Shown here one piece after another: positions 5,198-53,863 of a stretch of DNA of 64,000 nucleotides. Location: contig CAZEQC010000008.1 of the NCBI GenBank assembly GCA_964514285.1, forward strand, positions 6,181 to 70,180, in the 5' to 3' direction. The translations under genes and the position numbers were made by a program. The notes beneath the pieces are model-generated. The model did no database searches. It was given only the letters and a program-made list of their open reading frames with translations, and was not told the origin of the DNA. This stretch comes from an uncultured Anaerolineales bacterium. GTDB lineage: Bacteria; Chloroflexota; Anaerolineae; B4-G1. Position 1 is the first letter of the stretch; each line of letters begins with the position of its first letter.

Positions 5198-5213
5198 AAG
5201 TCACCCTCCAAAT

Positions 5214-6682: not shown

Positions 6683-6764
6683 TGGGGAAGGCGGGACTCG
6701 AACCCGCACGGGTTACCCCACGTGATCCTAAGTCACGCTCGTCTGCCAATTCCGACACTTCCCC
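6683..6764 (-). tRNA. tRNA-Leu (anticodon UAG), type II with long variable arm; CCA not encoded
   Basis: The reverse complement folds by hand. Acceptor GGGGAAG/CTTCCCC plus A. Anticodon arm CGTGA-CTTAGGA-TCACG. Variable arm GGGGTAACCC. T arm GCGGG-TTCGAGT-CCCGC. Confidence 0.85.
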
Positions 6765-26844: not shown

Positions 26845-27241
26845 GAATCGTACCGAAAGGTAGGATTCGAACCTGCACCTTACAAGCTCATAGCCACATC
26901 TCTGAACCGCTTGCCCTAAGGCGTCATCGAAGGGACGCTATGGCTAGCGGTCGCAGTGCCGTCTTCTGACGGCCAACGGTATGCAGGGAAACCTGTATAC
27001 CCCCCGTGTTTGGAAAGGAGAATGAGGCGAGGACTTCTTATGACCGGCGCCCTCTTCCCGATGCTAATCGGGCTTGTCCAATCTGGGGGCCGGTTCTTTG
27101 TTGCCCCGGACCCGAGCCCGGTTTGCCCCCTTTCCAGTGTGATACCCTGCAAACCCCACCAGTCAGCGCTAGGGCGCTAGATTGGTGAGGTCCTGTAGCC
27201 GTGCAGATTCCCTGCCAGATCTCTCGAAAGGATGGAAACCC
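26845..27241 (+). promoter_or_regulatory. structured 5' leader of about 400 nt, unclassified cis-regulatory RNA candidate
   Basis: Hand-folded plus-strand hairpins: 26845-26868 (GAAA loop), 26934-26952, 26958-26973 (GCCGTC/GACGGC), 26978-27001 (10 bp, GAAA loop, one G-U pair that would be an A-C mismatch on the minus strand) and 27057-27072 (CCCGAT/ATCGGG). No convincing ORF. Confidence 0.4.
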
Positions 27242-29749: not shown

Positions 29750-29887
29750 CACGCGGTCAGAAAGGGGGGCGGCTAGTCACCGCCCCCCGCGGCATGGATC
29801 GGCGGAGTCAGATAGCTCGCTGTGATGTCCAGTCGCAGGTTTGTGTCACGACCTAGGAGACACGACCTACACGTGCGGGAGGAGGAG

Positions 29888-33576: not shown

Positions 33577-34194
33577 ATGACGCGCCTTTTCGAACGAACG
33601 TCGAGGACCACTTGGTTGATCCTGGCGGCGGGGGTGCTGTTTCTCGGCGGCGGGCTCCTATTGGGCCTGCGCCAGTGGGGCGGACCCGACCGGGTCGAAC
33701 CTGTGGAATGGGATCTGACCCTGGTCGGCCGTGAGGGGCAGGAGCTGGTCCTCTCATACGACGAAGTAGTGTCGCTCCCCAGCGTGGAGACCCGTGCGGG
33801 GTTCTTCTCGTCCGTCGGGACGGTTTATGGCCCCTACACAGTGAGAGGGATTCCGCTTGATACGCTCCTCAATCTGGTCGGCGGCATATCCCCCTCCGAT
33901 GTGCTCTTCGTGGCCGCCAAAGATGGCTACTCCTGCGTCTTCGACTATGCACAGCTCCAAGGAGACATCGCCACATTCGAGCCGGACACACTCACGATGG
34001 TTCCGGAAGGAGATGTGCGATACCTCCTCATCTTCGAGCAGGACGGAGAGCCCTTACCTGAGAATAGCGGAAAGCCTCTCAGGCTGGCTGTCGCCAATCC
34101 CGACGGCCTGCTCACCGAAGGCCATTGGTGGGTCAAATGGGTCAAGCGCCTGGAGATACGGACCCTGACATCCGATTCGGACAATGGCGAATGA
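33577..34194 (+). CDS. N-terminally anchored single sulfite-oxidase-fold (Oxidored_molyb-like) domain protein lacking the Mo-ligand Cys
   Basis: TM 'WLILAAGVLFLGGGLLLGL', then 'WDLTLVG...VRGIPLDTLLNLVGG...FVAAKDGY...EQDGEPLPENSGKPLRLAVAN....GHWWVKWVKRLEI' (YedY-like C-terminal signature). Confidence 0.7.
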   Translation: MTRLFERTSRTTWLILAAGVLFLGGGLLLGLRQWGGPDRVEPVEWDLTLVGREGQELVLSYDEVVSLPSVETRAGFFSSVGTVYGPYTVRGIPLDTLLNLVGGISPSDVLFVAAKDGYSCVFDYAQLQGDIATFEPDTLTMVPEGDVRYLLIFEQDGEPLPENSGKPLRLAVANPDGLLTEGHWWVKWVKRLEIRTLTSDSDNGE

Positions 34195-34277
34195 GAAATC
34201 GAGGTCGACGTGAAAATCACTGCCAAACCTCGATGGGCTGCACCGGTGACGCCATCCTGCGCCCTGAGGAGGACCAC

Positions 34278-35354
34278 GTGAAGAACCTTTCCGTTATCCT
34301 CCTCGTATCGCTCTTCGCCCTTCTGCTGACCGGGTGCAGCGGCGGCGTCCCCATGCTTCCAGGCCAGGAGAAGAAGACGGAGATGCGCGTCCTCTTTGCT
34401 GGGAGCCTGATCCTCCCCTTCGACGACCTAGAACACGCCTTCGAGGAGCAGCACCCCAACATCGACGTCTTGATGGAGGGTCACGGATCGATTCAGTGTA
34501 TCCGTCAGGTCACGGAGCTCGAGAGACTGGCCGACGTCATCGCGGTGGCTGACTACTCGCTGATTCCGCTCCTGATGTATGAATCCAAGAACCCCGACAC
34601 AGACGAGCCCTACGCCGACTGGACGCTGCAGTTTGCCACAAACGAGCTCGGTCTAGCCTACACGGATGCCAGCGCCTATGCTGGGGAGATCGATGCCGAC
34701 AACTGGTATCGGATCCTATCCAGGCCCGATGTCGTCTTCGGCATCTCGGACCCACGGTTCGACGCCTGCGGCTACCGCGGCCTGATGTTGGGGCAGCTGG
34801 CGGTCTCGTACTACGACGAGCCGGATCTCTTCTATGACCTCTTCAGCGACCGATTCACCCAGCGGGTGGAGGTGCAGCGCGACCCGCGCGACGACCTCGA
34901 CACGATCCTGATACCCGAGGTGCTACGACCCGAAAGCGACAGCGGGCTGGTGATGCGCGGCTCCAGCGTCCAACTGCTGGGCGTGTTGGAATCGGGCGAT
35001 TTGGATTACGGCTTCGAGTACCTGAGTGTCTCCAGGCAGCGTGACCTGCGGTTCTTGGCCCTGCCCGAGGAGATCAACCTCAGCAGCGAAGCACACCAGG
35101 AGAACTACAGCCGCGCTCGTGTGAAGCTTGCCTATCAGCGTTTCGCCTCCGTCAATCCGGAGTTCGAGGGCAAGACCATCCACTACGGCCTGACCATCCC
35201 GTCCAACGCACCCCACCCCGATCTGGCCGTCGAGCTGATCCAGTTCCTCCTCGGCCCCGACGGTCAGAGGATCATGGCCGAGAACAACCATCCTATGATC
35301 CTTCCTCCCATCGTCGACCGCGAGGAGGCGCTGCCATGGGCACTCCAGCCGTGA
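34278..35354 (+). CDS. wtpA: tungstate/molybdate ABC transporter substrate-binding lipoprotein, WtpA type
   Basis: Lipobox 'LLLTGCSGG'. Collinear by eye with Pyrococcus WtpA: 'FAGSL..PF..L..AFEE.HPN..V..E..GS...IR.VTEL.R.ADV.A.ADY.LI', 'NWY.IL.RPDV.FG.S.P..D.CGYR', 'SG.LDY.F.Y.SV'. GTG after GAGGAGG. Confidence 0.85.
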   Translation: MKNLSVILLVSLFALLLTGCSGGVPMLPGQEKKTEMRVLFAGSLILPFDDLEHAFEEQHPNIDVLMEGHGSIQCIRQVTELERLADVIAVADYSLIPLLMYESKNPDTDEPYADWTLQFATNELGLAYTDASAYAGEIDADNWYRILSRPDVVFGISDPRFDACGYRGLMLGQLAVSYYDEPDLFYDLFSDRFTQRVEVQRDPRDDLDTILIPEVLRPESDSGLVMRGSSVQLLGVLESGDLDYGFEYLSVSRQRDLRFLALPEEINLSSEAHQENYSRARVKLAYQRFASVNPEFEGKTIHYGLTIPSNAPHPDLAVELIQFLLGPDGQRIMAENNHPMILPPIVDREEALPWALQP

Positions 35355-35388: not shown

Positions 35389-36168
35389 ATGACTCTTTTC
35401 TCTAGCCGTCTCTCGGCGCTGTTCACAGTCTTGGCCGCGCTCCTGGTCCTCTTCATCGCCTGGCCTCTGGTGCGTACCGTCACCGGTTCCCAGCCGGCGG
35501 TCACGTGGGAGACGCTCCTGGAGGCCGAGGTGCGGAATGCCATCCTCCTCACCTTCTACAGCTCGGCTTGGGCAACCGTCATCGCCTTCGTCACCGGGGT
35601 GCCCCTGGCGTATCTGCTTGCCCGCACCGACTTCCCCGGCAAGCGCTGGATTGAGGGAATCGTCGATGTGCCCGTCGTGGTACCCCATTCGGCCGCCGGC
35701 ATCGCGCTACTCTTGGTCTTCGGAAGGCGATCGTTTCTGGGCCGGACGTTCGGCCGGATGGGGCTCAGGTTCGTCTCGGCTGTTCCGGGCATTGTGATCG
35801 CCATGCTCTTCGTAAGCCTCTCGTTCCTGGTCGATGCGGCCCGCGAGGGGTTTGAGAGCGTCGATCCTCGGCTTGAGCGCGTAGCGCGCACCCTCGGTGC
35901 CTCTCCCTGGCAGACGTTTTGGCGCGTCTCCTTCCCGCTGGCGCGGCGCAGCATCCTCTCCGGGATGATCCTCATGTGGGCAAGGGGACTGAGCGAGTTC
36001 GGCGCCGTGGTCATCCTCGCCTATCATCCTATGATCGCTCCGGTGCTCCTCTTCGAGCGGTTTCAGTCGCTCGGGCTCGACTACGCCACGCCGGTGGCAG
36101 CCATCATTGTCATCATCTGCCTTCTCACGTTTGTAGCCCTACGCTTCGTCGCTCAGGAGAGGGAGTAG
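35389..36168 (+). CDS. wtpB: tungstate/molybdate ABC transporter permease (WtpB/ModB family)
   Basis: 6 TM and a CysTW/ModB-type EAA loop, 'ESVDPRLERVARTLGASPWQTFWRVSFPLA'. Confidence 0.85.
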   Translation: MTLFSSRLSALFTVLAALLVLFIAWPLVRTVTGSQPAVTWETLLEAEVRNAILLTFYSSAWATVIAFVTGVPLAYLLARTDFPGKRWIEGIVDVPVVVPHSAAGIALLLVFGRRSFLGRTFGRMGLRFVSAVPGIVIAMLFVSLSFLVDAAREGFESVDPRLERVARTLGASPWQTFWRVSFPLARRSILSGMILMWARGLSEFGAVVILAYHPMIAPVLLFERFQSLGLDYATPVAAIIVIICLLTFVALRFVAQERE

Positions 36169-37432: not shown

Positions 37433-38101
37433 GTGACGCTCGACCCGGCGCTCCTGCAGGTGGTGTCACTCTCCCTGCGGGTCTCGGGAATCGCACTTCT
37501 GTTCAGCACGGTCATCGGCATCCCATTGGGGGCGATGCTCGGACTGAACCGTTTCCGGGGCCGCCGGCTCATCATCGCTCTCCTCTATACCGGGATGGGC
37601 TTCCCACCCGTAGTGGTCGGCTTGTTCGTCTACTTGATGCTATCTCGAAGCGGCCCACTGGGTCAGATGACCGCGCCGGTGATCCCCGACCTCTTCACGC
37701 CGGGAGCCATGGTGGTCGCTCAGACGATCATCTCGTTCCCCTTGGTGGCGGGTTTCACCATGGCTGCCGTCATGGGCGTCGATCCGGGGCTCCGACGACA
37801 GGTCCAGGCCCTGGGTGCCACCCCTTGGCAGACGACACTGGCTATCCTCGTCGAGGCCCGCATCGGCGTCATCGTCTCGATCATCGCCGGCTTCGGCAGC
37901 ATCATATCCGAGGTTGGCGCCGTCATGATGGTGGGAGGGAACATCGAAGGCAGTACGCGCATGCTGACCACGGCCATCGTCCTGGAGACCCGGAAAGGGA
38001 ATTTCGACTTAGCCATGGCCATCGGCGTGATCCTCTTGGCTATCTCCTTCGCGGCGAATCTGCTGATGCAGCGGCTCCAGGGAAGGACGGTCGACGAATG
38101 A
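37433..38101 (+). CDS. tupB: tungstate ABC transporter permease, TupB type (true start probably upstream at a non-canonical codon)
   Basis: 5-6 TM. 'LDPALLQVVSLSLRVSGIALLFSTVIGIPLGAML' resembles TupB. The in-frame upstream 'IIDEIIRGISEAFRLIV' also resembles the TupB N-terminus. Confidence 0.8.
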   Translation: MTLDPALLQVVSLSLRVSGIALLFSTVIGIPLGAMLGLNRFRGRRLIIALLYTGMGFPPVVVGLFVYLMLSRSGPLGQMTAPVIPDLFTPGAMVVAQTIISFPLVAGFTMAAVMGVDPGLRRQVQALGATPWQTTLAILVEARIGVIVSIIAGFGSIISEVGAVMMVGGNIEGSTRMLTTAIVLETRKGNFDLAMAIGVILLAISFAANLLMQRLQGRTVDE

Positions 38102-38829
38102 GCGACTTCATCTACCGCATGCAGAACGTCTCTAAGACCTACGACGAACGGCGTGTGCTCACCGTCGACCATCTGCGTATCCGGCGTGGAGAGATCTTTG
38201 CCTTGGTCGGCCCGAGTGGTGCGGGCAAGAGCACGTTCCTGCGGCTGCTTAACTTCCTAGAAAGCCCAAACACAGGCCGCATCCGGTTCCTCGACGTCGA
38301 GTTCAGCTCCATGGGACAGGTTCCCCTACGACTCCGAAGACGCGTCACCACGGTCTTCCAGCGACCGATTCTCTTGAACCGCACCGTACACGCCAACGTG
38401 GCCTACGGGCTCAGGCTGCGCAGCGAGGAGGACGTAGGAGAGAAGGTCTGCCAAGCCCTGGAGGAAGTCGGCCTCGAGAATCACGCGCGTCAGCGTGCGA
38501 GGACCCTGTCCGGGGGCGAGGCCCAGCGAGTCGCCCTGGCGCGGGCCATTGTCCTGGACCCCGACGTCCTACTGCTTGATGAGCCGACGGCCAACCTCGA
38601 TCCCTACAACGTTGGCTTGATCGAGGAGATCGTTCAGCAGCGCAACCGTGAGCAGGGCACCACCCTGGTGTTGGTCACACACAATGTCTTCCAGGCCAAG
38701 CGGTTAGCCGACCGCGTGGCGCTGATGCTGGAAGGCGAGATCGTGGAGGTAGCCGACGTCGAGACCTTCTTCGAAGAACCCGACGATCCACGAACCGCCG
38801 CGTTCGTCCGCGGCGATATGATCTACTAA
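38098..38829 (+). CDS. tupC: tungstate ABC transporter ATP-binding protein, TupC type
   Basis: Walker A 'GPSGAGKST', 'LSGGEAQRVALARAI' and 'LLLDEPTANLD'. ATGA overlap with tupB. Confidence 0.85.
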   Translation: MSDFIYRMQNVSKTYDERRVLTVDHLRIRRGEIFALVGPSGAGKSTFLRLLNFLESPNTGRIRFLDVEFSSMGQVPLRLRRRVTTVFQRPILLNRTVHANVAYGLRLRSEEDVGEKVCQALEEVGLENHARQRARTLSGGEAQRVALARAIVLDPDVLLLDEPTANLDPYNVGLIEEIVQQRNREQGTTLVLVTHNVFQAKRLADRVALMLEGEIVEVADVETFFEEPDDPRTAAFVRGDMIY

Positions 38830-38849: not shown

Positions 38850-39767
38850 ATGTTCCGACGAATCGTGAGTCTGTTGACGGCGCTGACTCTGTTGGCCGGC
38901 ACGCTGATGGCGTGCGGCCCGCAGCAACCAACCGAACTCCCACCCACCCCCACCCAACGTCCACCAACGGCCACAGAGACCGAAGCGGAGGAGACGCGGA
39001 CGCTGACCCTAGCCACCACCACCAGCACCGAGAACTCGGGGCTGCTCGGCTATCTGCTGCCCTTCTTCGAGGAGGAGTACAACACCGAGGTCGAGGTCAT
39101 CGCGGTGGGAACGGGCCAGGCCCTGCAGATCGGCGAGGATGGGAACGCCGACGTCCTGATGGTCCACGCCCGCTCTCTGGAGGACGCCTTCATGGATGCG
39201 GGACACGGCGTCCGGCGCGAGGACCTGATGTACAACGACTTCGTCATCGTCGGCCCGCGCGATGATCCGGCCGGCATCGAGGGCACGACCGATGCCGCCG
39301 CCGCTTTCGCTCAGATTGCGGAGGCTGAGGCTACCTTCATCTCCCGCGGCGACGAATCGGGCACACACACCAAGGAGAAGACCATCTGGTCCGCCGCGGG
39401 TGTCGAACCCTCCGGCGACTGGTATATAGCCGCTGGGCAGGGCATGGGCGCCGTGTTGACTATGGCCGACGAGCAGGAGGGCTATACCCTCAGCGACCGG
39501 GCCACCTACCTGGCCCGCACCCTGGAGGGGACTGACCTGGTCATCCTCACCGAGGGTGACCCGATCCTCTTCAATCCGTATGGCGTCATCGCCGTCAATC
39601 CCGACAAGAGCCCGGAGATCAACGCCGAGCTGGCCAACCAGTTCATCGACTGGCTCATCTCCGTGCCCACCCAGGAGAAGATCGCCGAGTTCGGTGTGGA
39701 GCAGTTCGGCTCGCCGCTCTTCACGCCCGACTCAGAGCCTTGGCGAGAGGCGAACCCGGACGGCTAG
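38850..39767 (+). CDS. tupA: tungstate ABC transporter substrate-binding lipoprotein, TupA type
   Basis: Lipobox 'LLAGTLMACG'. 'LTLATTTSTENSGLLGYLLPFFEEEYNTEVEVIAVGTGQALQIGEDGNADVLMVHA...YNDFVIVGP.DDPAGI' matches the TupA pattern. Confidence 0.85.
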   Translation: MFRRIVSLLTALTLLAGTLMACGPQQPTELPPTPTQRPPTATETEAEETRTLTLATTTSTENSGLLGYLLPFFEEEYNTEVEVIAVGTGQALQIGEDGNADVLMVHARSLEDAFMDAGHGVRREDLMYNDFVIVGPRDDPAGIEGTTDAAAAFAQIAEAEATFISRGDESGTHTKEKTIWSAAGVEPSGDWYIAAGQGMGAVLTMADEQEGYTLSDRATYLARTLEGTDLVILTEGDPILFNPYGVIAVNPDKSPEINAELANQFIDWLISVPTQEKIAEFGVEQFGSPLFTPDSEPWREANPDG

Positions 39768-40193: not shown

Positions 40194-41033
40194 ATGACCC
40201 TCAAACGTGACGAAAGCGGTCGATTGCACATCGACACGCCCCTTATGGCCGAGTCCCTTATGGACAAGTCACTCCTCGATGCCACCGAGACGGAGACCGT
40301 CTTTCGTGCCTTGCCCGATCTCAACGTCATCAAATTGGGCGGGCAGAGCATCATCGATCGTGGCCGTGAAGCAGTGCTCCCCCTCGTCGAGGAAATCGTC
40401 ACCGCCCGTTCGGAGCACCAACTCCTGGTCACCACCGGTGGCGGAACTCGCAGTCGTCACGCCTATGTCATCGGGATGGATCTGGAGATGCCCACTGGCG
40501 TGCTGGCCAAGCTCGGCTCCAGCATCAGCGAGCAGAACGCCCTCATGCTCTCGATGCTGCTGGCGCCTTACGGAGGCATCAAGATCGGCCACGACGACCT
40601 GGTCAAGCTGCCCGCCTACATGGCCCTCGGGTCCATTCCCGTCATGCACGCTATGCCACCCTACGGGCTCTGGGAGGAACCGCCCGAGAGGGGCCGCATA
40701 CCACCGCACCGCACGGACAGTGGCGTCTTCCTCACCGCCGAGGTCGTGGGAGCCAGGCGCTGTATCCTGGTCAAAGACGAGCAAGGTTTGTTCACCGCCG
40801 ACCCCAAGAAGGATTCCGACGCCGAGTTCATCCCCGAGGTAGAGGTTAGCGAGCTTCTGGAGATGGACCTGGACGACCTGCCCGTGGAGCGCTCTATGCT
40901 GCGTGCCCTGGTCAGCGCTCGCAGCGTCCACGAGGTATTCATCATCAACGGGCGTGAGCCCGGGAACCTGACTCAAGCGCTTGCCGGGGAGAACCCAGGG
41001 ACGCGAATCTATCGCCAAAGCCACTCTCAATGA
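40194..41033 (+). CDS. molybdenum-storage-protein (MoSto, MosA/MosB) homologue, amino-acid-kinase fold
   Basis: Collinear by recall with Azotobacter MosB: 'ILPD..VIKIGGQSVIDRGR.AV.PLV.EIV.AR..H.LL..TG.GTR.RH', 'GVLA.LGSS...QNA.ML', 'MPPY.LW', 'IPP.RTD.G.FL.AE', 'VKDE.GL.TA.PK...DA.FIP', 'VNG..PGNLT.ALAGE..GT.I'. Confidence 0.8.
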   Translation: MTLKRDESGRLHIDTPLMAESLMDKSLLDATETETVFRALPDLNVIKLGGQSIIDRGREAVLPLVEEIVTARSEHQLLVTTGGGTRSRHAYVIGMDLEMPTGVLAKLGSSISEQNALMLSMLLAPYGGIKIGHDDLVKLPAYMALGSIPVMHAMPPYGLWEEPPERGRIPPHRTDSGVFLTAEVVGARRCILVKDEQGLFTADPKKDSDAEFIPEVEVSELLEMDLDDLPVERSMLRALVSARSVHEVFIINGREPGNLTQALAGENPGTRIYRQSHSQ

Positions 41034-41038
41034 TCTCT

Positions 41039-41437
41039 CTATGCATCGCTGGCTTCCCCGGCAGGGGTTCGGCCCTCCTTAGCCGCGCGTCCGTCTGCCA
41101 AGCCGCCGACACCACGCGAGCGCCGAGGGCCGCGCGGTTGGGGCGGGGCCACCTCGAACGTCCCCCCCTCGACCTGGAGCGCATAACCTTCGCTCAGCGC
41201 CAACGCCACCTGACGGCGAGCATGGGAGACGATCCGCTGAAAGGTAGAGCGAGAGACGCCCATGCACTCGGCCGCCTCGGCCTGGGTCAGGCCCTCAAGA
41301 TCGGCCAATCGCAGGGCCTCTCGCTCCTCCTGCAACAGGGTCACGCGACGCAGCCCATCCAGCGGTACGCCGGCTGGCTTGTAGATAGCCGGTTTCGGCT
41401 TCTGTGGTATGATGCGTCGCTTGCGGGGCCGGCCCAC
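41039..41437 (-). CDS. DUF134 (UPF0251) family HTH protein, putative regulator
   Basis: GTG start after GAGGGA gives 'MGRPRKRRIIPQKPKPAIYKPAGVPL...LLQEEREALRLADLEGLTQAEAAECMGVSRSTFQRIV', the DUF134 pattern (sigma70 region-4-like HTH). Confidence 0.75.
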   Translation of the reverse strand: MGRPRKRRIIPQKPKPAIYKPAGVPLDGLRRVTLLQEEREALRLADLEGLTQAEAAECMGVSRSTFQRIVSHARRQVALALSEGYALQVEGGTFEVAPPQPRGPRRSRGVGGLADGRAAKEGRTPAGEASDA

Positions 41438-41438
41438 G

Positions 41439-41672
41439 CTATCCCTCGCTGGGATCGCGACGCCGGCGGCCTTTGCCCTCCTCAGCCCCCTCCCCCCGAG
41501 GAAGATAGACGATCTCGGCCGGGAGATCGGCGGCGAGTTTCTCCAGCTCGGCGCGACGGATGCGCGTCTTGTAGACCCGCAGATCCACGCCGTGCGAGGC
41601 CACGATGGCAAAGCGCGGTCGCCCTGCGCCCTTGCCCACGTGGCGTCGATGACGCACGTACAGCTTACTCAT
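41439..41672 (-). CDS. hypothetical small basic protein (77 aa)
   Basis: ATG preceded by AAGAGGAGG. Codon third positions are GC-rich. It lies 1 nt upstream of the DUF134 start and is driven by a near-consensus promoter. I recognise no family. Confidence 0.5.
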   Translation of the reverse strand: MSKLYVRHRRHVGKGAGRPRFAIVASHGVDLRVYKTRIRRAELEKLAADLPAEIVYLPRGEGAEEGKGRRRRDPSEG

Positions 41673-41713
41673 ATCTAGGAGCCTCCTCTTATTTTGAGCA
41701 TATACCCAAAACT

Positions 41714-41742
41714 AGTATACACGACGTAGAAAGGTCTGTCAA
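41714..41742 (-). promoter_or_regulatory. near-consensus sigma70 promoter (TTGACA-N17-TATACT) for the small ORF + DUF134 operon
   Basis: On the minus strand the -35 is 41742..41737 and the -10 is 41719..41714. The inverted repeat TATAC-N9-GTATA (41701-41719) overlaps the -10. Confidence 0.5.
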
Positions 41743-41747
41743 CCAAC

Positions 41748-42494
41748 GTGAAGCCAGGCGAAACAAGACAAGCACGGATGGTGGAGGAAGCAGGTTTCTT
41801 CATCGGCCTCGACGACACCGACACCCGTGAATCCCGTGGCACTGGCCACCTTGCGCGTCACATCGCCGCTGTGCTGGCGCGCCACTATCCGCTGTTGGGC
41901 GTGACGCGTCACCAGTTGCTCTTCGATCCTCGCGTGCCGTACACCGCGAAGAACAGCTGCGCCGCTATCGTATGCGCGTCGAACGGTCACATCGACCCCC
42001 AGGCATTGATGAGTCGCGTCCAGGCAATCATGCGGAAGCACTTCAACCCCGGCAGCGACCCAGGCCTCTGCATTGCGCCGCTCGGATACGAGCCGCGCCT
42101 TCCCGAGCCGATCACCGCTTTCGGGCGCCGCGCGAAGCAGGAGTTGGTGACTCAAGAGGAAGCCCGCTCCTTGGCCGCCGCTCACGCCATTCCCTTGGCC
42201 GGGCTGGGTGGCAGCGAGGACGGCGTCATCGGCGCGCTGGCCGCCGTCGGCCTGGCGGCTGGCGGAGACGACGGTCGTTATGTGATGGTCGGACGTTCCA
42301 GGGACCTCCAGGGCCTTCAGCCGATCACCGCCGTGCTGGAGGCGGGCATCGCCGATGTGCGCACTCTCGACGGCCGCCCGGTGACTGCGGGCCTCATCCT
42401 CAGCGACAAACTGCGCCCCGCGCGGCGTGGCGCCCAGCCGATCGCCTTCGTCGAGTGGGCTGAGGGGCACTGGCGTCCTCTCAAGCTCGATTGA
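41748..42494 (+). CDS. stand-alone homologue of the TiaS N-terminal kinase-like (TCKD) domain; function unknown
   Basis: 'FFIGLDDTDTRESRGTGHLA', 'DPRVPYTAKNSCAAIV', 'DPGLCI' and 'EDGVIGALAAVGLA' parallel archaeal TiaS 'IGIDDTDS..GMCTTYLA', 'NP.IPYKTRGNGA', 'NPG', 'RGLIGALAAVG' (from memory). Start is GTG 41748 or ATG 41778. Confidence 0.6.
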   Translation: MKPGETRQARMVEEAGFFIGLDDTDTRESRGTGHLARHIAAVLARHYPLLGVTRHQLLFDPRVPYTAKNSCAAIVCASNGHIDPQALMSRVQAIMRKHFNPGSDPGLCIAPLGYEPRLPEPITAFGRRAKQELVTQEEARSLAAAHAIPLAGLGGSEDGVIGALAAVGLAAGGDDGRYVMVGRSRDLQGLQPITAVLEAGIADVRTLDGRPVTAGLILSDKLRPARRGAQPIAFVEWAEGHWRPLKLD

Positions 42495-42515
42495 AGAAGC
42501 GTTAAGGAGCCCTCG

Positions 42516-43514
42516 ATGGCCCATCTCGACGCCTACAACCGCCCCATCAGCTACTTGCGGATCTCAGTCACCGATCGCTGTAACTTGCGCTGCATCTACT
42601 GTATGCCGGATGAGGGCGTCCCATCCGTCAGCCATCATCGCATCCTGCGCTACGAGGAGATCGAGACCATCGTCCACGCCGCAGCCGATCTGGGGATCAC
42701 TAAGGTACGGCTCACCGGCGGCGAGCCGCTCGTCCGGCACGGCATCGTCGATCTGGTGCGTAAGATCGCCCGCATCCCCGGCATCGACGATCTGGCCATG
42801 ACCACCAACGGCATCCTGCTGGCTCGCTACGCTCAGCATCTCTCCGACGCTGGGCTCCACCGGGTCAACATCAGCTTGGACACCCTCGACCCAGAGCGCT
42901 TCCGCCACATCACCCGCCGCGGCGAGCTGCAGGACGTCCTATCCGGCATTGAGGCCGCCCGGGCGGCTGGCCTGCGCCCCATCAAGATCAACACCGTCGT
43001 GATCCGCGGGATGAACGCTGACGAGGTCGTCGACCTCGCTGCCAAGACGCTGGAGGCTGGATGGTGGAACATCCGTTTCATTGAGCTGATGCCGGTCGGC
43101 GACGGCGAACTGATGAACACGGCGTGGGAAGAGCAGGTCGTGACGGTCCCGGAGATTCGCCAGCGGATCGAGACGGCACTGGGCGAACTGGAGCCCGTCA
43201 AGATGCGCGTCGGCAGCGGCCCTGCCCGTTACTACCAGCTTCCGGGGGCGAAGGGCACCATTGGCTTCATCAGCCCCATCAGCCAGCACTTCTGCTACCG
43301 CTGCAACCGCTTGCGACTCACTGCTGACGGACAGCTGCGCCCCTGCCTGCTCTCCGATCAGGAGCTCGACCTGCGCACCCCGCTGCGCCAGGGCGCCGGA
43401 GCTAATCAGATCAAGGCCCTGATCATCGAGGCCATCAACCGTAAGCCTATGCGCCACCATCTGGATGAGCACCTCCATCCAGAGCGGCGCGCCATGTCAC
43501 AGATCGGAGGATAG
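42516..43514 (+). CDS. moaA: GTP 3',8-cyclase (radical SAM)
   Basis: 'YLRISVTDRCNLRCIYCMP', 'VRLTGGEPL' and the C-terminal cluster 'FCYRCNRLRLTADGQLRPCL'. Confidence 0.95.
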   Translation: MAHLDAYNRPISYLRISVTDRCNLRCIYCMPDEGVPSVSHHRILRYEEIETIVHAAADLGITKVRLTGGEPLVRHGIVDLVRKIARIPGIDDLAMTTNGILLARYAQHLSDAGLHRVNISLDTLDPERFRHITRRGELQDVLSGIEAARAAGLRPIKINTVVIRGMNADEVVDLAAKTLEAGWWNIRFIELMPVGDGELMNTAWEEQVVTVPEIRQRIETALGELEPVKMRVGSGPARYYQLPGAKGTIGFISPISQHFCYRCNRLRLTADGQLRPCLLSDQELDLRTPLRQGAGANQIKALIIEAINRKPMRHHLDEHLHPERRAMSQIGG

Positions 43515-43517
43515 GAG

Positions 43518-44006
43518 TTGGACACACGCCAAGTCGTCCGCCTGCGGGTTCACGAAGGCTACTGGGGCCATGACTGGAACTGCGCCGTCACGACGCTCCG
43601 CATCCTCAGCGAGGTCTTCGATATCTCCCTTCATCGGCAGGTGCTCGACGGGGCCCTGGGTATGCACGGGGCCGGGGGCTATCGCGCTCAGTGTGGCTTG
43701 GTGGAGGGTGCCCTTATGGCCATCGGAATCCTTGGCAAGGCCAGAGGGCTCGACGACGACGCCGTCGTGGAGGCGTGTTACCGCTTTGCCGAGGCCTTCG
43801 AGGATCGCTTCGGCAGCCTGCTCTGCCAAGAGTTGCGGCCCGAGGGATTCAGCCCCGACAATCCGCCCCACCTGTGCGAGGAACTGACGCGAAGAGCGAT
43901 CCTCTTCGACATCCAGGTCATAGGCGACGAGCTAATCAGAAAGAAGGAGAGGGAGAGAGCAGAGGGGGTGCCGACCGACCCTCTCGACCCCTACAGTGAA
44001 CGATGA
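43518..44006 (+). CDS. C_GCAxxG_C_C family putative redox-active protein
   Basis: 'NCAVTTL', '[18 protein letters not shown]', 'FGSLLCQEL' and '[11 protein letters not shown]' reproduce the C...GCxxxG...C...C pattern. TTG start. Confidence 0.7.
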
Positions 44007-44485
44007 GCCTTTCACACGTGGACGAAGAAGGACGCATCCGCATGGTCGGCGTGGGTCACAAACCCGACACCGTGCGTCTGGCCGTCGCCAAGGGCGAGGT
44101 ACGGATGAGGTCAGAGACACTGCGCCTCATCGCTCAGGGCGAAGCACCCAAAGGGGATGTGCTGAATACGGCGCGGATTGCCGGCATTATGGCTGCCAAA
44201 CGCACCCACGAGCTTATCCCCCTCTGTCACCCCCTGCCGCTCACCAAGGTCGACGTCGATTTCGCCATCGACCCGGACGCTTCGCGAGTCGTCATCACGG
44301 CCACGGCCCGCTGCACCGGCAAGACGGGCGTGGAGATGGAGGCCCTTACTGCCGTCAGCGTCGCCGCCCTGACCGTCTACGATATGGCCAAGGCGGTTGA
44401 GAAGACGATGGAGATAGGCCGGATTCGCTTGGTGACTAAGACAGGTGGGAAGAGCGGGGACTGGGAACGTGAGGATGACGTATGA
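44003..44485 (+). CDS. moaC: cyclic pyranopterin monophosphate synthase
   Basis: '[24 protein letters not shown]', '[29 protein letters not shown]', '[23 protein letters not shown]'. Confidence 0.95.
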
Positions 44486-44775
44486 CAATGAGGAAGGAGA
44501 ACGGAGGGCGAAGCGTGGAAGAGAAACTCATTCGGGTGCGGGTCAAGTTCTTCGCTGCACCGCGGCAGGCCCTGGGCACCGACGAGATCGATCTCGATAT
44601 CGCAGTGGGCTCGACGGTCAAGGATCTCATCCGCGTGCTGCGGGACAGATATCCGGTCCTGGAAAGCTATACCCGCTTCCTCAACGTGGCCGTCAACCGC
44701 GCCTATGTCGGTATGCAGACCGAACTCCACGATGGCGACGAGGTCGCCTGTCTGCCTCCGGTAGGCGGGGGGTAA
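44482..44775 (+). CDS. moaD: molybdopterin synthase sulfur-carrier subunit (MoaD/ThiS fold)
   Basis: '[21 protein letters not shown]' and the C-terminal '[14 protein letters not shown]' (Gly-Gly terminus). Alternative GTG start at 44536. Confidence 0.85.
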
Positions 44776-44778
44776 GCT

Positions 44779-45234
44779 ATGAAGCTCTTTGAGATAACGA
44801 CAGCGCCGCTCTCCGTCGACGACGTCGTCGCTCGCCTCGCCCGCCCGTCCATTGGCGCCGTCACCACCTTTGTCGGGGTGGTGCGCGGCGAGACCGACGG
44901 GCGCGAGACCCGGCGACTCGAGTACGAGGCGTACCCCGAGATGGCCGAGGAGCAGCTCCAGCGGATCGGCGACGAGATCCGTCGGCGGTGGCCCACGATT
45001 CGCCAGGTGGCCATCGTCCACCGCATCGGACACCTGCAAATCGGGGAGACCATCGTCGTCATCGCCGTATCATCCCCTCACCGTCAGGAGACCTTCGCCG
45101 CGACGCACTATGCCATCGATCGGCTCAAGGAGATCGTGCCCATCTGGAAGAAGGAGGTCTGGAAGGACGGAGAGGCTTGGCGGAGTGAGCAGACAGAGAG
45201 CAAGCGAGCACAGGAGCAGGAGGAGAGAGAATAG
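44779..45234 (+). CDS. moaE: molybdopterin synthase catalytic subunit
   Basis: 'GAVTTFVGVVRGE', 'LEYEAYPEMAE', 'VAIVHRIGHLQIGETIVVIAVSSPHRQEAF', 'IDRLKEIVPIWKKE'. Confidence 0.9.
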   Translation: MKLFEITTAPLSVDDVVARLARPSIGAVTTFVGVVRGETDGRETRRLEYEAYPEMAEEQLQRIGDEIRRRWPTIRQVAIVHRIGHLQIGETIVVIAVSSPHRQETFAATHYAIDRLKEIVPIWKKEVWKDGEAWRSEQTESKRAQEQEERE

Positions 45235-46460
45235 TGGAACCCATGCTGAGCTTGGAAGAGGCCCAAGAACGAGTACTGAGCGTGTTTGAACCGGTGGAGA
45301 CGGAGTGCGTGCCCATCCTCAAAGCCGCCGGACGCGTGCTGGCCGAGGATGCCTACGCCGACGCGGATATCCCTCCCCACGCCAACTCGTCCATGGACGG
45401 CTTCGCCGTCCGGGCTGTCGATACTGCCGCTGCTGATCCAGGCGATCCCGCCCAGCTGCGCATCATCGGTGATCTGCCCGCCGGCTACGTCCCCGAGCGG
45501 GCCGTGAAGCCCGGCACGGCCATCCGCATCATGACCGGCGCGCCGCTCCCACCGGGTGCCGATGCCGTGGTCAAGGTCGAGGATACAGAGACCCAGGATG
45601 ACGCCGTGCACATCCTCACCGCAGTCGAGCCTGGCAACTACGTCCGGCCGGCCGGCGAGGACGTGCGCCAGGGCTCCCTCGTCCTCCGCCACGGGACGCG
45701 ACTCCGCCCTCAGGAGATCGGCATGCTGGCTGGGCTGGGACACGAGCAGGTCACCGTGGCCCGTAAACCCCGCGTGGCGATCCTCGCCACGGGAGATGAG
45801 TTGGTGGGCATCGACGAACCTCTCCTCCCAGGCAAGATTCGCAACACCAACACCTACTCGAACGCGGCCCAGGTTCTCGAGCACGGCGGCGAGCCCATCC
45901 TCCTCGGAATCGCCCGCGATCGCGTCGAGGAGCTGACGGCCAAGATCAGGGCCGGGCTGGATCAAGGTGTCGATCTCTTCCTCACCTCCGGCGGCGTCTC
46001 CGTCGGGGACTTTGACCTGGTGAAGGAGGTGCTGGCCACCGAGGGGCAGATGGCCTTCTGGCGTGTGCGGATGAAGCCGGGCAAGCCCCTGGCGTTCGGA
46101 GACGTCGGCGGCGTCCCGGTGCTCGGACTACCCGGCAACCCCGTGTCGGTCATGGTCTCCTTTGAGATGTTCGTCCGCCCCGCCCTTCTGAGGATGCAGG
46201 GCGCAGTGGACTGGCGCCGTCCCACCGTCGAAGCCACCCTGGTGGACGAGATCAAGCAAAAGGACGAGAGGCGCCACTTCGTCCGCGTCCACCTCGTCTG
46301 GGACGAGGGATCCTATCGCGCCTACCTCACCGGCGCCCAGGGGTCGGGCATCCTCAGCTCTATGGTCAAAGCCAACGCTCTGGCCATCATCCCTGAGGAC
46401 TGGGATCACGCCCCGGCTGGAGCGCGCGTGGAGGTGATGATGCTGGAGTGTCAGAGGTGA
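45234..46460 (+). CDS. moeA: molybdopterin molybdo/tungsto-transferase
   Basis: 'LSLEEAQERVL', 'PPHANSSMDGFAVR', 'IMTGAPLPPGADAVV', 'VAILATGDELV', 'IRNTNTY', 'DLFLTSGGVSVGDFD', 'KPGKPLAFG', 'LGLPGNPVS'. Confidence 0.9.
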   Translation: MEPMLSLEEAQERVLSVFEPVETECVPILKAAGRVLAEDAYADADIPPHANSSMDGFAVRAVDTAAADPGDPAQLRIIGDLPAGYVPERAVKPGTAIRIMTGAPLPPGADAVVKVEDTETQDDAVHILTAVEPGNYVRPAGEDVRQGSLVLRHGTRLRPQEIGMLAGLGHEQVTVARKPRVAILATGDELVGIDEPLLPGKIRNTNTYSNAAQVLEHGGEPILLGIARDRVEELTAKIRAGLDQGVDLFLTSGGVSVGDFDLVKEVLATEGQMAFWRVRMKPGKPLAFGDVGGVPVLGLPGNPVSVMVSFEMFVRPALLRMQGAVDWRRPTVEATLVDEIKQKDERRHFVRVHLVWDEGSYRAYLTGAQGSGILSSMVKANALAIIPEDWDHAPAGARVEVMMLECQR

Positions 46461-47428
46461 ATGGAGCGACGTCCGTGCGCGGCTACGGTATCGCTTTGGC
46501 CAGCACCGCCATCTGGTCCGCCTCGGCCGTCTTCATCAGCCACCTGTCCACTCGTTTCCACATGCCGCCCTTGGTGCTGGCCTTCTGGCGCGACTTCCTG
46601 GTGACGTGCACGCTTGCCGGGACCCTGATCCTCTTCGCGCCACAACACCTCCGTCTAGGCTGCCCTCCGCCCGCGCGCCGGCACGTTCCCTTCTTCATCC
46701 TCTACGGCTTCCTCCTGGCGATCTTCAACAGTTTGTGGACCATCTCCGTGGTCCTAAACGGCCCGTCGGTGGCCACCGTCCTTGGCTACATCTCGCCCGC
46801 TTTCACCGGCCTGATTGGCTGGTACTGGTTTGACGAGCGTCTCACAGCACCGAAGATCGTAGCCATTCTTCTCAGTCTCATCGGCTGCGTCTTCGCCTCC
46901 GGCGCCAATGATCCAACGGTCTGGCAGGGCAACGCCGTGGGCATTATCCTTGGACTCGGAACCGGCTTGGTCTTCGCCTTCTACAGCCTGATGGGCAAGG
47001 CCTCCGCAAGCAAGAACATCAACCCCTGGCAGGCCACGCTCTACACCTTCGCTTTCGGCTCGGGATTCCTGTTGTTGCTCCAACGCCCTGGGACCCTCTT
47101 CTGGCTCTCTCGTCCCCTGGCCCAGGGCCCTGCCGGGTGGCGCGAGGCTGCCCTGGGTTGGGGCACCCTGCTACTGCTCGCCATCGGGCCTACCTTGGGT
47201 GGCTACGGCCTCTACACCGTCAGTCTCACGCACCTGCCGGCCTCAACGGCGAGCTTAATCCTGACCCTCGAGCCCGCCATGACGGCCGTTCTGGCCTTCT
47301 TCTTCCTGAACGAGCGTTTGACCCAGTCTCAGCTCGTCGGCGGTGCCGTCATCCTGGCGGGCGTCTTCATCCTCCGCTTCAGCGATCGTCAAACCGTCAG
47401 AGCGCACCAGCCCGTCCTCCAGGACTAG
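46448..47428 (+). CDS. EamA-family (DMT superfamily) transporter
   Basis: 10 TM with two EamA halves. Overlaps the moeA stop by 13 nt. Confidence 0.8.
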   Translation: MSEVNGATSVRGYGIALASTAIWSASAVFISHLSTRFHMPPLVLAFWRDFLVTCTLAGTLILFAPQHLRLGCPPPARRHVPFFILYGFLLAIFNSLWTISVVLNGPSVATVLGYISPAFTGLIGWYWFDERLTAPKIVAILLSLIGCVFASGANDPTVWQGNAVGIILGLGTGLVFAFYSLMGKASASKNINPWQATLYTFAFGSGFLLLLQRPGTLFWLSRPLAQGPAGWREAALGWGTLLLLAIGPTLGGYGLYTVSLTHLPASTASLILTLEPAMTAVLAFFFLNERLTQSQLVGGAVILAGVFILRFSDRQTVRAHQPVLQD

Positions 47429-49751: not shown

Positions 49752-50636
49752 TTACCCAAGAACATACATCACCATCACAATGCTGACACCCCAGAGCAGA
49801 ATATCTACCTGCAACGCTCGGTCAGAGAACACGATCTCCTCCGGGGCACCTCCCAGCTCTTTGACGTGCATCAGGTACAGATAGCGAAAGATACCGTACA
49901 GCACGAATGGAATCGTCAGCATCATCGTGTGGTTTTGTGGCAGATTCGGCGCCGAAAACGTGTAGAGCGCATAAGCCACCAATGTCGACGCCGTGACGAT
50001 GCTGATGATGTGGTCCAGCAGCGACAAGTTGTATTGCCGAAGCGCCTCACGATGCCCCGCGGCGTTCTCCCTTAGCAGAACCAGCTCGTGACGCCGCTTG
50101 CCAAAGCCGATCAAGAGCGCCAAAAGCGTCATGCAGACGTAAAGCCAGGGAGAGAACCGTTCTGCATCCACCAGCGGCACCCCTGCCGCGACGCGCAGCA
50201 GGAAACCACTCGCCACCAGCATCACGTCGATGATCACCAGGTCCTTAAGCCAAAACGAATAGGCGATCTGAACCAGCAGGTAGCCAGCCAGGATCGCACC
50301 CAGCCAAACATCAAGCACGAATCCTAAAGGCAAGGCGATCAATGGAATGATCAAAGCCGCGACCCTCGCCGTGCCAACGCCCAACGCCCCGGAGGCCAGT
50401 GGGCGATGACGCTTCCGCGGATGGTTCCGGTCCTTCTCGATGTCGGCCAGATCGTTGATAATGTATACCGTTCCCGACGTCAGACACAGGAGCACAAATC
50501 CCGCAGCCGTCCGGGCCAGGTAATGAAGCTCAAATAACTTCTCATCGAAAACCAGGGGGGCAAAGACGAACACATTCTTGAACCACTGCTTGGGCCGCAT
50601 GGTCTTGATCAAGCCGATGAGTGTACCCTTCCTCAT
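49752..50636 (-). CDS. UbiA-family prenyltransferase, decaprenyl-phosphate phosphoribosyltransferase-like
   Basis: 'MRPKQWFKNVFVFAPLVF', 'YIINDLADIEKDRNHPRKRHRPLASG' and 8-9 TM. The start overlaps the AOR stop (TGATG). Confidence 0.8.
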   Translation of the reverse strand: MRKGTLIGLIKTMRPKQWFKNVFVFAPLVFDEKLFELHYLARTAAGFVLLCLTSGTVYIINDLADIEKDRNHPRKRHRPLASGALGVGTARVAALIIPLIALPLGFVLDVWLGAILAGYLLVQIAYSFWLKDLVIIDVMLVASGFLLRVAAGVPLVDAERFSPWLYVCMTLLALLIGFGKRRHELVLLRENAAGHREALRQYNLSLLDHIISIVTASTLVAYALYTFSAPNLPQNHTMMLTIPFVLYGIFRYLYLMHVKELGGAPEEIVFSDRALQVDILLWGVSIVMVMYVLG

Positions 50637-52528
50637 CACACACCACTCCGCTCCAAAGACTCGGCTAGCCAACCGAGCTCCAGCTCTTGGAGCTTGGCCC
50701 GTGTCGGGCGCCCCCGGTCGTCCCAACCCGCCATCTGGTAGTAGAGCGCCTTCGCAGCCTCGAAATCCGCCGCTTCGATCACAATCCCGTCGCTCGGCCC
50801 ACCCCTCAGCGGAACCGTCATCTTAGCGGGGAGTGTGTCCGCCTCCGCGCCGACACCTTCCCGGGCGTTGAATGCTCGCAGCATAGTCAAACGTCGCTCA
50901 CCCACCTTCATCAGCTCCCAGAGGCTCACCCCCCAGCCGGTGACCGCCCGCACCAGGTCCACCAGCTGGTTGGCGTCGTAGAGCTGAAAGGACGGGCCCC
51001 AGACGAACTGGCAGACTGTGACACTGTCCACGAGGCTGTTCCACCGCTGCGTGTAGACGGCAAAACGCACCTTCTCCGCATTCAACGTCCTCAAGGGCTG
51101 GGGGTCCCGCAGATCCAGCTGAGCCATTCGATCGGGATAGCCACCATAGGTCGGATCATGCTGATGAGACTCATGATCGGCGCCAAAGGGATTGACCCCA
51201 TAGATCAAGGCCAGGCTCCGCTTCAATTGGGGCATGTGGGCCGGGAACTCATGCTTCTTCGCTGCGACCACCAGGTCTTCGCCGACGCCCAGCGCCTCCG
51301 CCGCCCGTGTCGATCCTTCGCCCAGCAGCTTACCAAATCCCTTGCGCTCCCCGATACGCTTCACCATCTCCGTCAGGGCCTCGGCGTTGCCGAAGCGTAG
51401 CTCAACGCCTTCGGTCTCCTCCGGTCCAATCAGCCCTCGTTCGTAACAGTCCATCGCCCAGGCGATCGTCGCCCCGCACGAGATCGTGTCCATTCCGTAC
51501 ATATTGCACAGCTGATTCGCGTAGGCGATGGCTTCCAGATCGGAGACGCCACAATACGACCCCATAGTGGCCAGTGTCTCGTACTCCGGGCCTCCATAGC
51601 GCGGATCGAGATCGTAACGCCCCTCTCGGGATTCGACCACCCGCTTGCAGCGGACGACACATCCATAGCAGGTATCGCGCTCCTTGAGGATTGTATCCGC
51701 CATGCGTTGTCCGCTGATCGCCTCAGCGCCTTCGAACACGCCGCTGGACCAATTGCGTGTCGGCAGACCTCCCACCCTCTGCTGCGCAGTGACCGTCTGA
51801 GCGGTCCCCAGCAGACCAAGACCGTAAACGTCCGAGGTCTCGAAGTGCTCAGCGCCCCACTTCGCCAAAGCCCTCACGCCCTCCCGATCTGCCCATTCCG
51901 GGCGGCTATGCCCTCGAACGGCGACCGCCTTCAGGTTCTTCGAGGCCATCACCAGCCCCATGCCCGTGCGGCCGTTCGCTCGGTTAGCGTAGTTGATCAA
52001 GGCGCTAAAGCGTACGCCTCTCTCGGCTGCTGGTCCACACTGCAGGACTTGCACACGATCGTCATCGAGCTCTTCCCGGAGCATGTCCTCCACTTCAGCC
52101 GTAAACGCTCCCCACAGATGCTCACCATCCCGCAGCTCGGCCTCCCCATCCTCGATCCACAGATAGAGAGGTCGTTCGGCCTTTCCTCGGATCACAACCC
52201 CATCAAAGCCCGCGAACTTGAGCTCTGCCGGCCAAAACCCCCCGGCCTGAGCATCGCCAACGAGGCCCGTCTCAGGCGACTTGGCGGTGGCAACCACGCG
52301 AGACTGCCCGGACACCGACGCCCCGACCACGACCCCCGTCATCAGACAGAGGGTATTCTCCGGGCCAAGCGCATCCGCGCCGGGAGGCGTCTGCTTGAGG
52401 AGGTAGTAGGCCCCCATCGCGCTCCCACCCAGGTACTTGCGGTAGAATCTCTCATCAGGTTGTTCGACGGTCAGCTCCTCCGTCGTCAGATCGACGTGAA
52501 GGATCCGACCTTGGTATCCATAGGGCAT
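50636..52528 (-). CDS. aor: aldehyde:ferredoxin oxidoreductase family tungstopterin enzyme
   Basis: 630 aa. 'GYQGRILHVDLTTEELTVEQPDERFYRKYLGGSAMGAYYL', 'DTCYGCVVRCKR', 'GPEYETLA' and 'CGVSDLEAIAYANQLCNMYGMDTIS' match AOR blocks. Confidence 0.9.
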   Translation of the reverse strand: MPYGYQGRILHVDLTTEELTVEQPDERFYRKYLGGSAMGAYYLLKQTPPGADALGPENTLCLMTGVVVGASVSGQSRVVATAKSPETGLVGDAQAGGFWPAELKFAGFDGVVIRGKAERPLYLWIEDGEAELRDGEHLWGAFTAEVEDMLREELDDDRVQVLQCGPAAERGVRFSALINYANRANGRTGMGLVMASKNLKAVAVRGHSRPEWADREGVRALAKWGAEHFETSDVYGLGLLGTAQTVTAQQRVGGLPTRNWSSGVFEGAEAISGQRMADTILKERDTCYGCVVRCKRVVESREGRYDLDPRYGGPEYETLATMGSYCGVSDLEAIAYANQLCNMYGMDTISCGATIAWAMDCYERGLIGPEETEGVELRFGNAEALTEMVKRIGERKGFGKLLGEGSTRAAEALGVGEDLVVAAKKHEFPAHMPQLKRSLALIYGVNPFGADHESHQHDPTYGGYPDRMAQLDLRDPQPLRTLNAEKVRFAVYTQRWNSLVDSVTVCQFVWGPSFQLYDANQLVDLVRAVTGWGVSLWELMKVGERRLTMLRAFNAREGVGAEADTLPAKMTVPLRGGPSDGIVIEAADFEAAKALYYQMAGWDDRGRPTRAKLQELELGWLAESLERSGV

Positions 52529-53731: not shown

Positions 53732-53863
53732 CAGATCTCCAGGTAACTGTTCACCTGCTGCTCCCAGCGGATCCGTGATCCGCAGCCTTGGGCGCGGAAT
53801 TGCCGGATCACGGGCGGAAGGCCGCCTAATCCGGCTAGAGTATGAGAGCCACAAAGTGAATAG

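Follow-up and report, generated by a model that had tools for sequence, protein, structure and literature searches.

A 64,000-nucleotide (nt) stretch of contig CAZEQC010000008.1 from an uncultured Anaerolineales bacterium, referred to as the window throughout, encodes a protein that resembles the kinase domain (TCKD) of TiaS, the tRNA(Ile2) 2-agmatinylcytidine synthetase. The family of this TCKD-like protein is probably an undescribed part of the molybdenum and tungsten (Mo/W) supply, and the protein is not a tRNA enzyme. Tentatively, and at slightly less than an even chance, we read it as a cytoplasmic ATP-dependent partner in an undescribed Mo/W uptake and storage module. This module comprises the TCKD-like protein, an S-component of the energy-coupling factor (ECF) type, often with a fused EcfAA' ATPase and EcfT, a small extracytoplasmic protein, and/or a protein of the MosB type together with the tungstate transporter TupABC. 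It is often switched by a riboswitch for the molybdenum or tungsten cofactor (Moco/Wco), and membership in such a riboswitch regulon was observed in several genomes. An earlier note on this DNA had rightly placed the protein in a Mo/W setting, and a part in the cell's Mo/W economy is supported.

The kinship with TiaS is carried by profile and structure comparisons. Full-domain TCKD homology rests on a family profile, built from 48 diverse members, and on the fold. In the PDB, the profile covered the whole TCKD of an N-terminal fragment of P. furiosus TiaS (3U02; E 2.6e-15) and of A. fulgidus TiaS (E about 5e-12). For the AlphaFold model of the protein (predicted local distance difference test, pLDDT, of 87; predicted template modelling score, pTM, of 0.85), TiaS structures were the only significant Foldseek matches in the PDB, with an E value of 2e-8, a probability of 1.0 and approximately 160 aligned residues. 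The Pfam model TiaS_TCKD (PF22641) was also matched, with 29.8 bits at a gathering score of 27 and an alignment over model positions 1-62 only. D12, D13 and D15 of the DDTD motif and T22, in the numbering of the 238-amino-acid (aa) form, were invariant across the 48 diverse members and align with D8, D9, D11 and T18 of A. fulgidus TiaS. The roles of these TiaS residues, including autophosphorylation of Thr18, were reportedly described in 2011 by Terasaka et al. and Osawa et al. Profile, Pfam and Foldseek thus agree with the stand-alone TCKD homologue with an acidic cluster that had been proposed in the earlier note, and the Thr18 equivalent is kept as well. The 3U02 structure was also considered as a stand-alone archaeal homologue and rejected as such, being a fragment of P. 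furiosus TiaS.

Compared with the TiaS structures (3AMT, 3AMU, 5XOB and 3U02), the fold is common over approximately 160 residues, and both proteins contain the metal-binding DDTD cluster, the threonine equivalent to Thr18 and four further blocks (RxxL, PYT, NPG/DPG and GxIGAlAAvG). However, the TCKD-like protein has no ferredoxin-like, OB or zinc-ribbon domain and carries its own family-specific C-terminal beta domain of 75 aa. The earlier statement that the OB and zinc-ribbon parts are absent holds, given a length of 238-248 aa and a C-terminal part without a match. Modelled separately, this C-terminal domain reached an AlphaFold pLDDT of 83.5 and had no structural relative in the PDB by Foldseek (best E 1.7). 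Its assignment as a molybdate-binding TOBE/Mop domain or as an OB fold was rejected, as the best match at this E value was to PRC-barrel-like proteins. Judged from its profile and predicted structure, the protein is a TiaS kinase core without the tRNA-binding parts of TiaS.

That the protein modifies tRNA or another RNA in the manner of TiaS, or is a decayed fragment of such an enzyme, is extremely improbable. The TCKD fold is present and many members have been named TiaS by JGI, but the domains that hold the tRNA in TiaS are missing, and the NCBIfam TiaS model (NF040849; E 1.4e-6 over aa 18-169) was matched with a score of 27.1 at a cutoff of 600. In bacteria, this modification is made by TilS. 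The TCKD-like family occurs in bacteria as well as archaea, and its context is consistently membrane transport and Mo/W rather than translation. The family is also not decaying, since identities of 65-85% are retained among hundreds of Anaerolineae members. The best-scoring named hidden Markov model (HMM) was that of methanogenesis marker 11 (TIGR03280; E 3e-13, 49.5 bits at a cutoff of 255.8), with the match confined to model positions 136-284. This C-terminal half of marker 11 is the same TCKD domain, whereas the TCKD-like protein lacks the N-terminal part of approximately 135 aa and has a C-terminal domain of its own. As marker 11 carries a TCKD, the domain is used outside tRNA modification.

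With regard to family size, scoring of the 8,000 best-sharing candidates gave more than 3,600 family proteins in 90%-identity clusters at E values up to 0.001, and among the 50%-identity representatives, 876 were found at E up to 0.001 and 112 at E up to 1e-30. The scan of a species-representative genome collection, which covered the close Anaerolineae subfamily by patterns of that subfamily only, returned 299 stretches with a relative, and the best 80 of these were all from Chloroflexota, mostly Anaerolineae. Named members are found in Methanofollis ethanolicus, Methanocorpusculum parvum and Thermococcus sp. RefSeq/PGAP names the proteins 'ABC transporter substrate-binding protein' or hypothetical, while JGI calls them TiaS (database proteins P0047, P0118, P0185, P0280 and others), and the public annotation of the family lacks consistency and is probably wrong. 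A literature search found no paper on the family. Domain fusions were discarded as a functional clue, as the longer proteins P0127, P0206, P0218 and P0253 have wrong starts, frameshifts or insertions, and none was informative.

The evidence for a function comes from the gene neighbourhoods. The loci analysed (given as L numbers) are the best-scoring relatives, and the tblastn and HMM searches for neighbours used queries drawn from these same loci. In 80 Anaerolineae loci, the TCKD-like gene is typically followed directly by four genes, which encode a fused EcfAA' ATPase (ECF_ATPase, E 3e-85), an EcfT (CbiQ, E 7e-20), a membrane-anchored protein of approximately 160 aa and an S-component of approximately 181 aa. 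The latter matched Pfam PF09819 (YkoE type) with 28-30 bits at a gathering score of 25.2, and its putative assignment to the ECF S-components rests on this modest score and on the operon partners. Partners within 5 kb were counted in those 42 Anaerolineae loci in which the gene is flanked by 5 kb or more on either side. EcfAA' was present in 35 of them, the S-component, EcfT and the 160-aa protein in 34 each, a Tup/Mod binding protein in 22, a kinase-family protein resembling the molybdenum storage protein MoSto in 20, and a DUF134 regulator in 13, while moaA was found in 4 and moeA in 3. All 42 loci had either ECF/S genes (35) or else an adjacent MoSto-like gene (7), with the window being of the second type, and in several loci the MoSto-like gene directly precedes the TCKD-like gene.

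The earlier note had put the gene at the head of the Moco biosynthesis genes. This is true of the window, and moaA also lies directly 3' of the TCKD-like gene in L007, L015 and L019, but the arrangement is a local peculiarity. In most relatives, either the ECF genes intervene, as all four do between the TCKD-like gene and moaA in L008, L011, L037, L038 and L065, or no moa gene is nearby (moaA, moaC or moaE within 5 kb in 4-5 of the 42 loci, moaD uncounted). The note had further inferred that the protein could replace one of the adenylyltransferases of Moco synthesis, namely Mog/MoaB, acting on molybdopterin (MPT), or MoeB, acting on MoaD. Common to these enzymes and the proposed role is the use of ATP with release of pyrophosphate (PPi) or AMP in the Mo/W cofactor pathway, and the TCKD reportedly splits ATP into exactly these products. 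The local absence of the three genes was borne out as well, since none of the E. coli proteins Mog, MoaB and MoeB had a tblastn match in the 64-kb window, and no moeB/ThiF-type gene was detected by tblastn in any of about 170 related loci. However, the clusters that hold the TCKD-like gene in L064, L071 and L085 include a canonical mog, flanked by moeA and the MoSto-like gene and matching E. coli Mog at E 1e-27 to 1e-33. As mog and the TCKD-like gene occur inside one operon neighbourhood, the TCKD-like protein is not Mog's replacement.

The neighbourhood statistics likewise speak against a linkage to Moco genes, with moaA and moeA as rare as counted above and no moa gene within 5 kb in any of the 80 loci from the distant subfamily described below. 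The tightest partner is a membrane protein, the folds of MogA/MoaB and MoeB are unrelated to that of the TCKD-like protein, and TiaS chemistry is phosphoryl transfer rather than adenylylation. In addition, the family occurs in Thermococcus and methanogens, which are expected to have E1-like MoaD activators. The linkage points to uptake and storage and not to MPT synthase, a MoeB-like role has no linkage support and is unlikely, and the replacement of either adenylyltransferase is, as a whole, very improbable. The other suggestion of the earlier note, a tungsten-specific accessory factor, is compatible with the TupABC, MoSto-like and aldehyde:ferredoxin oxidoreductase (AOR) neighbours and with the riboswitches of relatives that lack a P3 stem.

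In a metagenomic subfamily of 40-48% identity, 64 of 80 loci have an S-like membrane open reading frame (ORF) immediately ahead of the TCKD-like gene, with a median gap of 3 nt, and no EcfA or EcfT was found nearby in these loci. The subfamily is probably planctomycete, since DUF1559 proteins and TonB-dependent receptors are among its neighbours. Nine of its loci contain a gene for a ModE-type helix-turn-helix (HTH) protein. In L135 (3894-4952, - strand) the ModE-type HTH is fused to ModA in a protein of 352 aa (TIGR01256, 101 bits at a cutoff of 62.5), and L118 (5363-6421, - strand) encodes a homologous protein of the same length. Both genes are divergent from the S-like/TCKD-like pair and probably encode molybdate-sensing regulators.

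Among the archaea, the Thermococcus locus consists, in this order, of a lipoprotein gene (133 aa), the TCKD-like gene, an overlapping S-component gene and a DUF364 gene, and the Methanocorpusculum locus of genes for the TCKD-like protein, a 266-aa protein, the S-component, EcfAA' and EcfT. The TCKD-like gene of Methanofollis ethanolicus comes after genes for a Mod/Wtp-type ABC transporter with a TOBE domain, for a MOT1 molybdate transporter and for two MoSto-like proteins, the second of which ends 69 nt ahead of its start. Another distant locus (L174) encodes, in this order, an HTH/PBP_like regulator, a 69-aa TOBE protein, a 147-aa lipoprotein, the TCKD-like protein, the S-like protein and TupABC, and is divergent from an AOR gene. 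The exported proteins of 133, 147 and 160 aa are mutually homologous (blastp E 1e-24 to 1e-5) and are, by this sequence criterion, the third conserved part of the module. In Thermococcus L088 (9320-10057) and L089, the triplet of lipoprotein, TCKD-like and S-component genes is followed by a DUF4213/DUF364 protein, whose family is annotated as putative heavy-metal chelation, and by a metallo-beta-lactamase-fold protein.

Riboswitches of the relatives were located by Rfam and by a covariance model built from the hits. A Moco-motif riboswitch lies at most 250 nt 5' of the TCKD-like gene in L008, L035, L065, L075 and L084. In L056, L063, L068 and L165, it lies 5' of a gene for a lipoprotein of 150-160 aa that precedes the TCKD-like gene and carries a truncated molybdopterin-binding PF00174 domain (Oxidored_molyb; 27-31 bits at a gathering score of 24), and in other loci it is found 5' of the MoSto-like gene, tupB or moaA. 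L041 has two of them in tandem (4927-5047 and 5120-5238) 5' of moaA. The three riboswitches inspected, those of L008, L035 and L084, are without the P3 stem, whereas the window riboswitch has it. Variants without P3 correlate with tungsten-cofactor metabolism (Regulski et al. 2008, PMC2408646). The window has only this one riboswitch, on the same strand and 15 kb 5' of the TCKD-like gene, and it heads a series of + strand genes that spans 20 kb, with moeA and an EamA transporter gene as its last members.

In the uptake and storage module favoured here, the TCKD-like protein would act on the cytoplasmic side directly after uptake. It would spend ATP in the manner of TiaS (AMP and PPi, phosphoryl transfer) to capture or activate an imported Mo/W species, which could then be handed to a storage protein or to MoeA. 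In the window, where the ECF-type transporter genes are missing, it presumably works with the tup, MoSto and moaA gene products. As substrate, inorganic W/Mo species are only tentatively ranked above a pterin because of the metal-handling neighbours and the loci with only Tup and MoSto beside the gene.

Known systems offer partial parallels. The dedicated group I ECF system ykoFEDC of B. subtilis combines the S-component YkoE (PF09819) with YkoF, a soluble protein that binds hydroxymethylpyrimidine (HMP) and thiamine. The relatives' operon likewise encodes a soluble protein together with an S-component of the PF09819 type, EcfT (CbiQ) and the fused EcfAA'. However, the TCKD-like fold differs and is probably catalytic, a small extracytoplasmic protein is added, the context is Mo/W and not thiamine, and the window is without the transporter. 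MoSto (MosA/MosB) of Azotobacter vinelandii is a case of ATP-dependent Mo/W handling, and a MosB-like gene is the upstream neighbour in the window, but the TCKD-like protein has no sequence relationship to MoSto, and we know of no accessory enzyme of this kind for MoSto.

Several points weigh against an uptake and storage role. Substrate and reaction of the family are read from context only, and the loci, as best-scoring relatives, are a non-random sample of the family. The PF09819 similarity of the S-like protein is modest, as given above, and its profile found no match among the solved structures of the PDB. To our knowledge, S-components are known for vitamins and for nickel and cobalt cations, not for oxyanions, and a further oxyanion importer looks redundant, since the loci already carry high-affinity Tup/Mod transporters. 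Furthermore, no S-component, EcfT or ECF-type ATPase gene was found within the 64 kb of the window, so that a transporter partnership cannot be demonstrated in this genome.

Alternatively, the ECF system could import a molybdopterin-type compound (MPT, Moco, cyclic pyranopterin monophosphate or a dephospho form), with the TCKD-like kinase trapping or re-activating it. We consider such pterin salvage unlikely, but it draws on a familiar pattern: salvage kinases for thiamine, riboflavin and pyridoxal are encoded beside their transporters, and the operon has the same layout of transporter plus kinase under a cofactor-sensing riboswitch. S-components normally carry vitamins or cofactor precursors, and the S-like protein matches the YkoE type. 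The lipoproteins with a truncated PF00174 domain ahead of the gene fit a pterin as well, as do the secreted Oxidored_molyb-like and purple-acid-phosphatase-like proteins behind the window riboswitch, and the TCKD kinase of TiaS is said to act on a pyrimidinone ring. However, the recurrent neighbours (TupABC, Mod, MOT1, MoSto-like, TOBE, ModE-ModA) handle metal, a complete de novo pathway is often present in the same cluster, and Methanofollis as well as the seven Anaerolineae loci like the window have MoSto-like neighbours and no transporter. Treating the lipoprotein of the sm160 type as an Oxidored_molyb domain was unsupported (hhalign probability 2.7%, no match of its profile in the PDB), and, lipobox cysteine aside, the small lipoproteins have no Mo-ligating cysteine. 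It is doubtful that the kinase, the S/ECF proteins and the lipoproteins with a truncated molybdopterin-binding domain, jointly under a cofactor-sensing riboswitch, make up the first prokaryotic uptake-and-salvage route for molybdopterin-type compounds.

The kinase could also be regulatory, gating Mo/W uptake or storage by autophosphorylation of the Thr18 equivalent or by phosphorylation of the transporter, the MoSto-like protein or a regulator. The invariance of this threonine and the tight coupling of the gene to a membrane-protein gene agree with such a role, and TiaS is reportedly a dual protein and RNA kinase. However, a catalytic core and a highly conserved C-terminal domain that are kept across phyla fit substrate chemistry equally, the loci are already controlled by the riboswitch and by ModE-type or DUF134 regulators, and there is no precedent for the TCKD fold in signalling. 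A regulatory function is quite improbable.

Returning to the gene itself, the ORF of 248 aa starts with GTG at 41748, while the identical database protein P0001 has 238 aa and starts with the ATG at 41778. As family conservation begins at 'FIGLDDTD', either start is possible, which leaves the first ten codons in doubt. Thousands of homologues show that the + frame is genuine, and an antisense ORF of 261 aa (41739-42524) was dismissed as its shadow. The earlier spacing of 21 nt to moaA was correct (stop at 42494, ATG of moaA at 42516), and an AAGGAG ribosome-binding site precedes moaA. The gene had also been described as divergent from a DUF134 regulator. This gene indeed lies on the opposite strand, but it comes second, and the immediate neighbour is a conserved 77-aa gene without a Pfam match, whose product is 79% identical to that of the equally placed 89-aa gene of L001. 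The 77-aa gene is preceded by a good ribosome-binding site and, at 41742-41714 on the - strand, by a strong sigma-70-like promoter. The + strand showed no such promoter from 41672 to 41778. The true start of DUF134 is probably near 41380; the 190-aa ORF as called overlaps the 77-aa gene, and relatives have 109-112 aa.

The core of the Mo/W island in the window thus reads tupBCA, the MosB-like gene, the 77-aa gene and DUF134 on the other strand, the TCKD-like gene and moaA (Table 1). The AOR is a likely consumer of the cofactor. The C_GCAxxG_C_C gene overlaps moaC by 4 nt, and the same insertion is present in L015 and L037. An EamA gene also follows moeA in L015 and on the P0037 contig, and the one in the window may belong to the cofactor operon. 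The four + strand genes directly behind the window riboswitch make up an unusual group of genes for exported proteins, controlled by the cofactor.

Table 1. Coordinates of the TCKD-like gene, its domains and further features of the window
Feature	Position	Strand	Remarks
tRNA gene	6683-6764	-	Rfam, 55 bits
Moco riboswitch with P3 stem	26888-27036	+	RF01055, 62.4 bits; gathering score 36
Secreted 855-aa protein	27182-29749	+	partial Oxidored_molyb segment; follows riboswitch
376-aa protein	29822-30952	+	no Pfam family
Purple-acid-phosphatase-like protein	30949-32658	+	
305-aa protein	32651-33568	+	no Pfam family; before the Mo/W transporters
Second Mo/W ABC transporter, binding protein	34125-35354	+	
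Second Mo/W ABC transporter, permease	35389-36168	+	
Second Mo/W ABC transporter, ATPase with TOBE domain	ends 37301	+	
tupB	37433-38101	+	tungstate ABC transporter; Pfam
tupC	about 38098-38829	+	tungstate ABC transporter; Pfam
tupA	38850-39767	+	tungstate ABC transporter; Pfam; E 1.4e-81 against PDB 3lr1
MosB-like molybdenum-storage amino-acid-kinase family protein	40194-41033	+	PDB MoSto beta E 3.7e-75, alpha E 2e-52
DUF134 HTH regulator	41039-41611	-	Pfam DUF134 E 2e-21, ORF aa 60-153
Conserved 77-aa gene	41439-41672	-	first divergent neighbour of the TCKD-like gene; upstream of DUF134
TCKD-like gene	41748-42494	+	
TCKD domain	41796-42257	+	aa ~7-160 (238-aa numbering); alignments, Foldseek
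C-terminal beta-rich domain	42270-42494	+	~75 aa; invariant 'RP' in basic motif DKLRPARRG
moaA	42516-43514	+	Pfam
C_GCAxxG_C_C family, putative redox-active protein	43518-44006	+	Pfam; between moaA and moaC
moaC	44003-44485	+	Pfam
moaD	44482-44775	+	Pfam
moaE	44779-45234	+	Pfam
moeA	45234-46460	+	Pfam
EamA-family transporter	46448-47428	+	overlaps moeA end by 13 nt
Aldehyde:ferredoxin oxidoreductase, tungsten enzyme family	50636-52528	-	AFOR_N and AFOR_C, E 5e-123
Phage-type integrase	52652-53854	-	adjoins the aldehyde:ferredoxin oxidoreductase gene

Some relatives carry a second, divergent EcfAA'-like gene (35-38% identical) 6-9 kb 5' of the TCKD-like gene (L016, L022, L033, L046, L027, L034, L047 and L049). 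It is accompanied by an EcfT-like gene (29-32% identical) where one was detected (L027, L034, L047 and L049). A Moco-motif riboswitch lies 1.5-2 kb 5' of this second EcfAA' region in L016, L022, L033 and L046 (located at about 1.2-1.6 kb in these loci), and in L034 and L047 a gene for a TupA-like binding protein (47-50% identical) is found further 5'. This second set may encode a further transporter of this kind that is regulated by the cofactor.

Mo and W enzymes drive much of the anaerobic chemistry of carbon, nitrogen and sulfur, and their supply chain is thought to be well mapped, from uptake by Mod, Tup or Wtp to MoaA-E, Mog and MoeA. The TCKD-like family points to a conserved module inside the Mo/W regulon that is mislabelled in databases and is found in Chloroflexota, a probably planctomycete lineage and the cultured archaea Thermococcus, Methanocorpusculum and Methanofollis. 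If tungstate or molybdate is imported or processed by it, this would be a new class of oxyanion transporter, and an exotic kinase fold would have been put to a new use. If a pterin cofactor is salvaged instead, it would answer whether microbes exchange Moco. On either reading, the rare TCKD fold gains a second biological context, and it does so in organisms where this can be tested.

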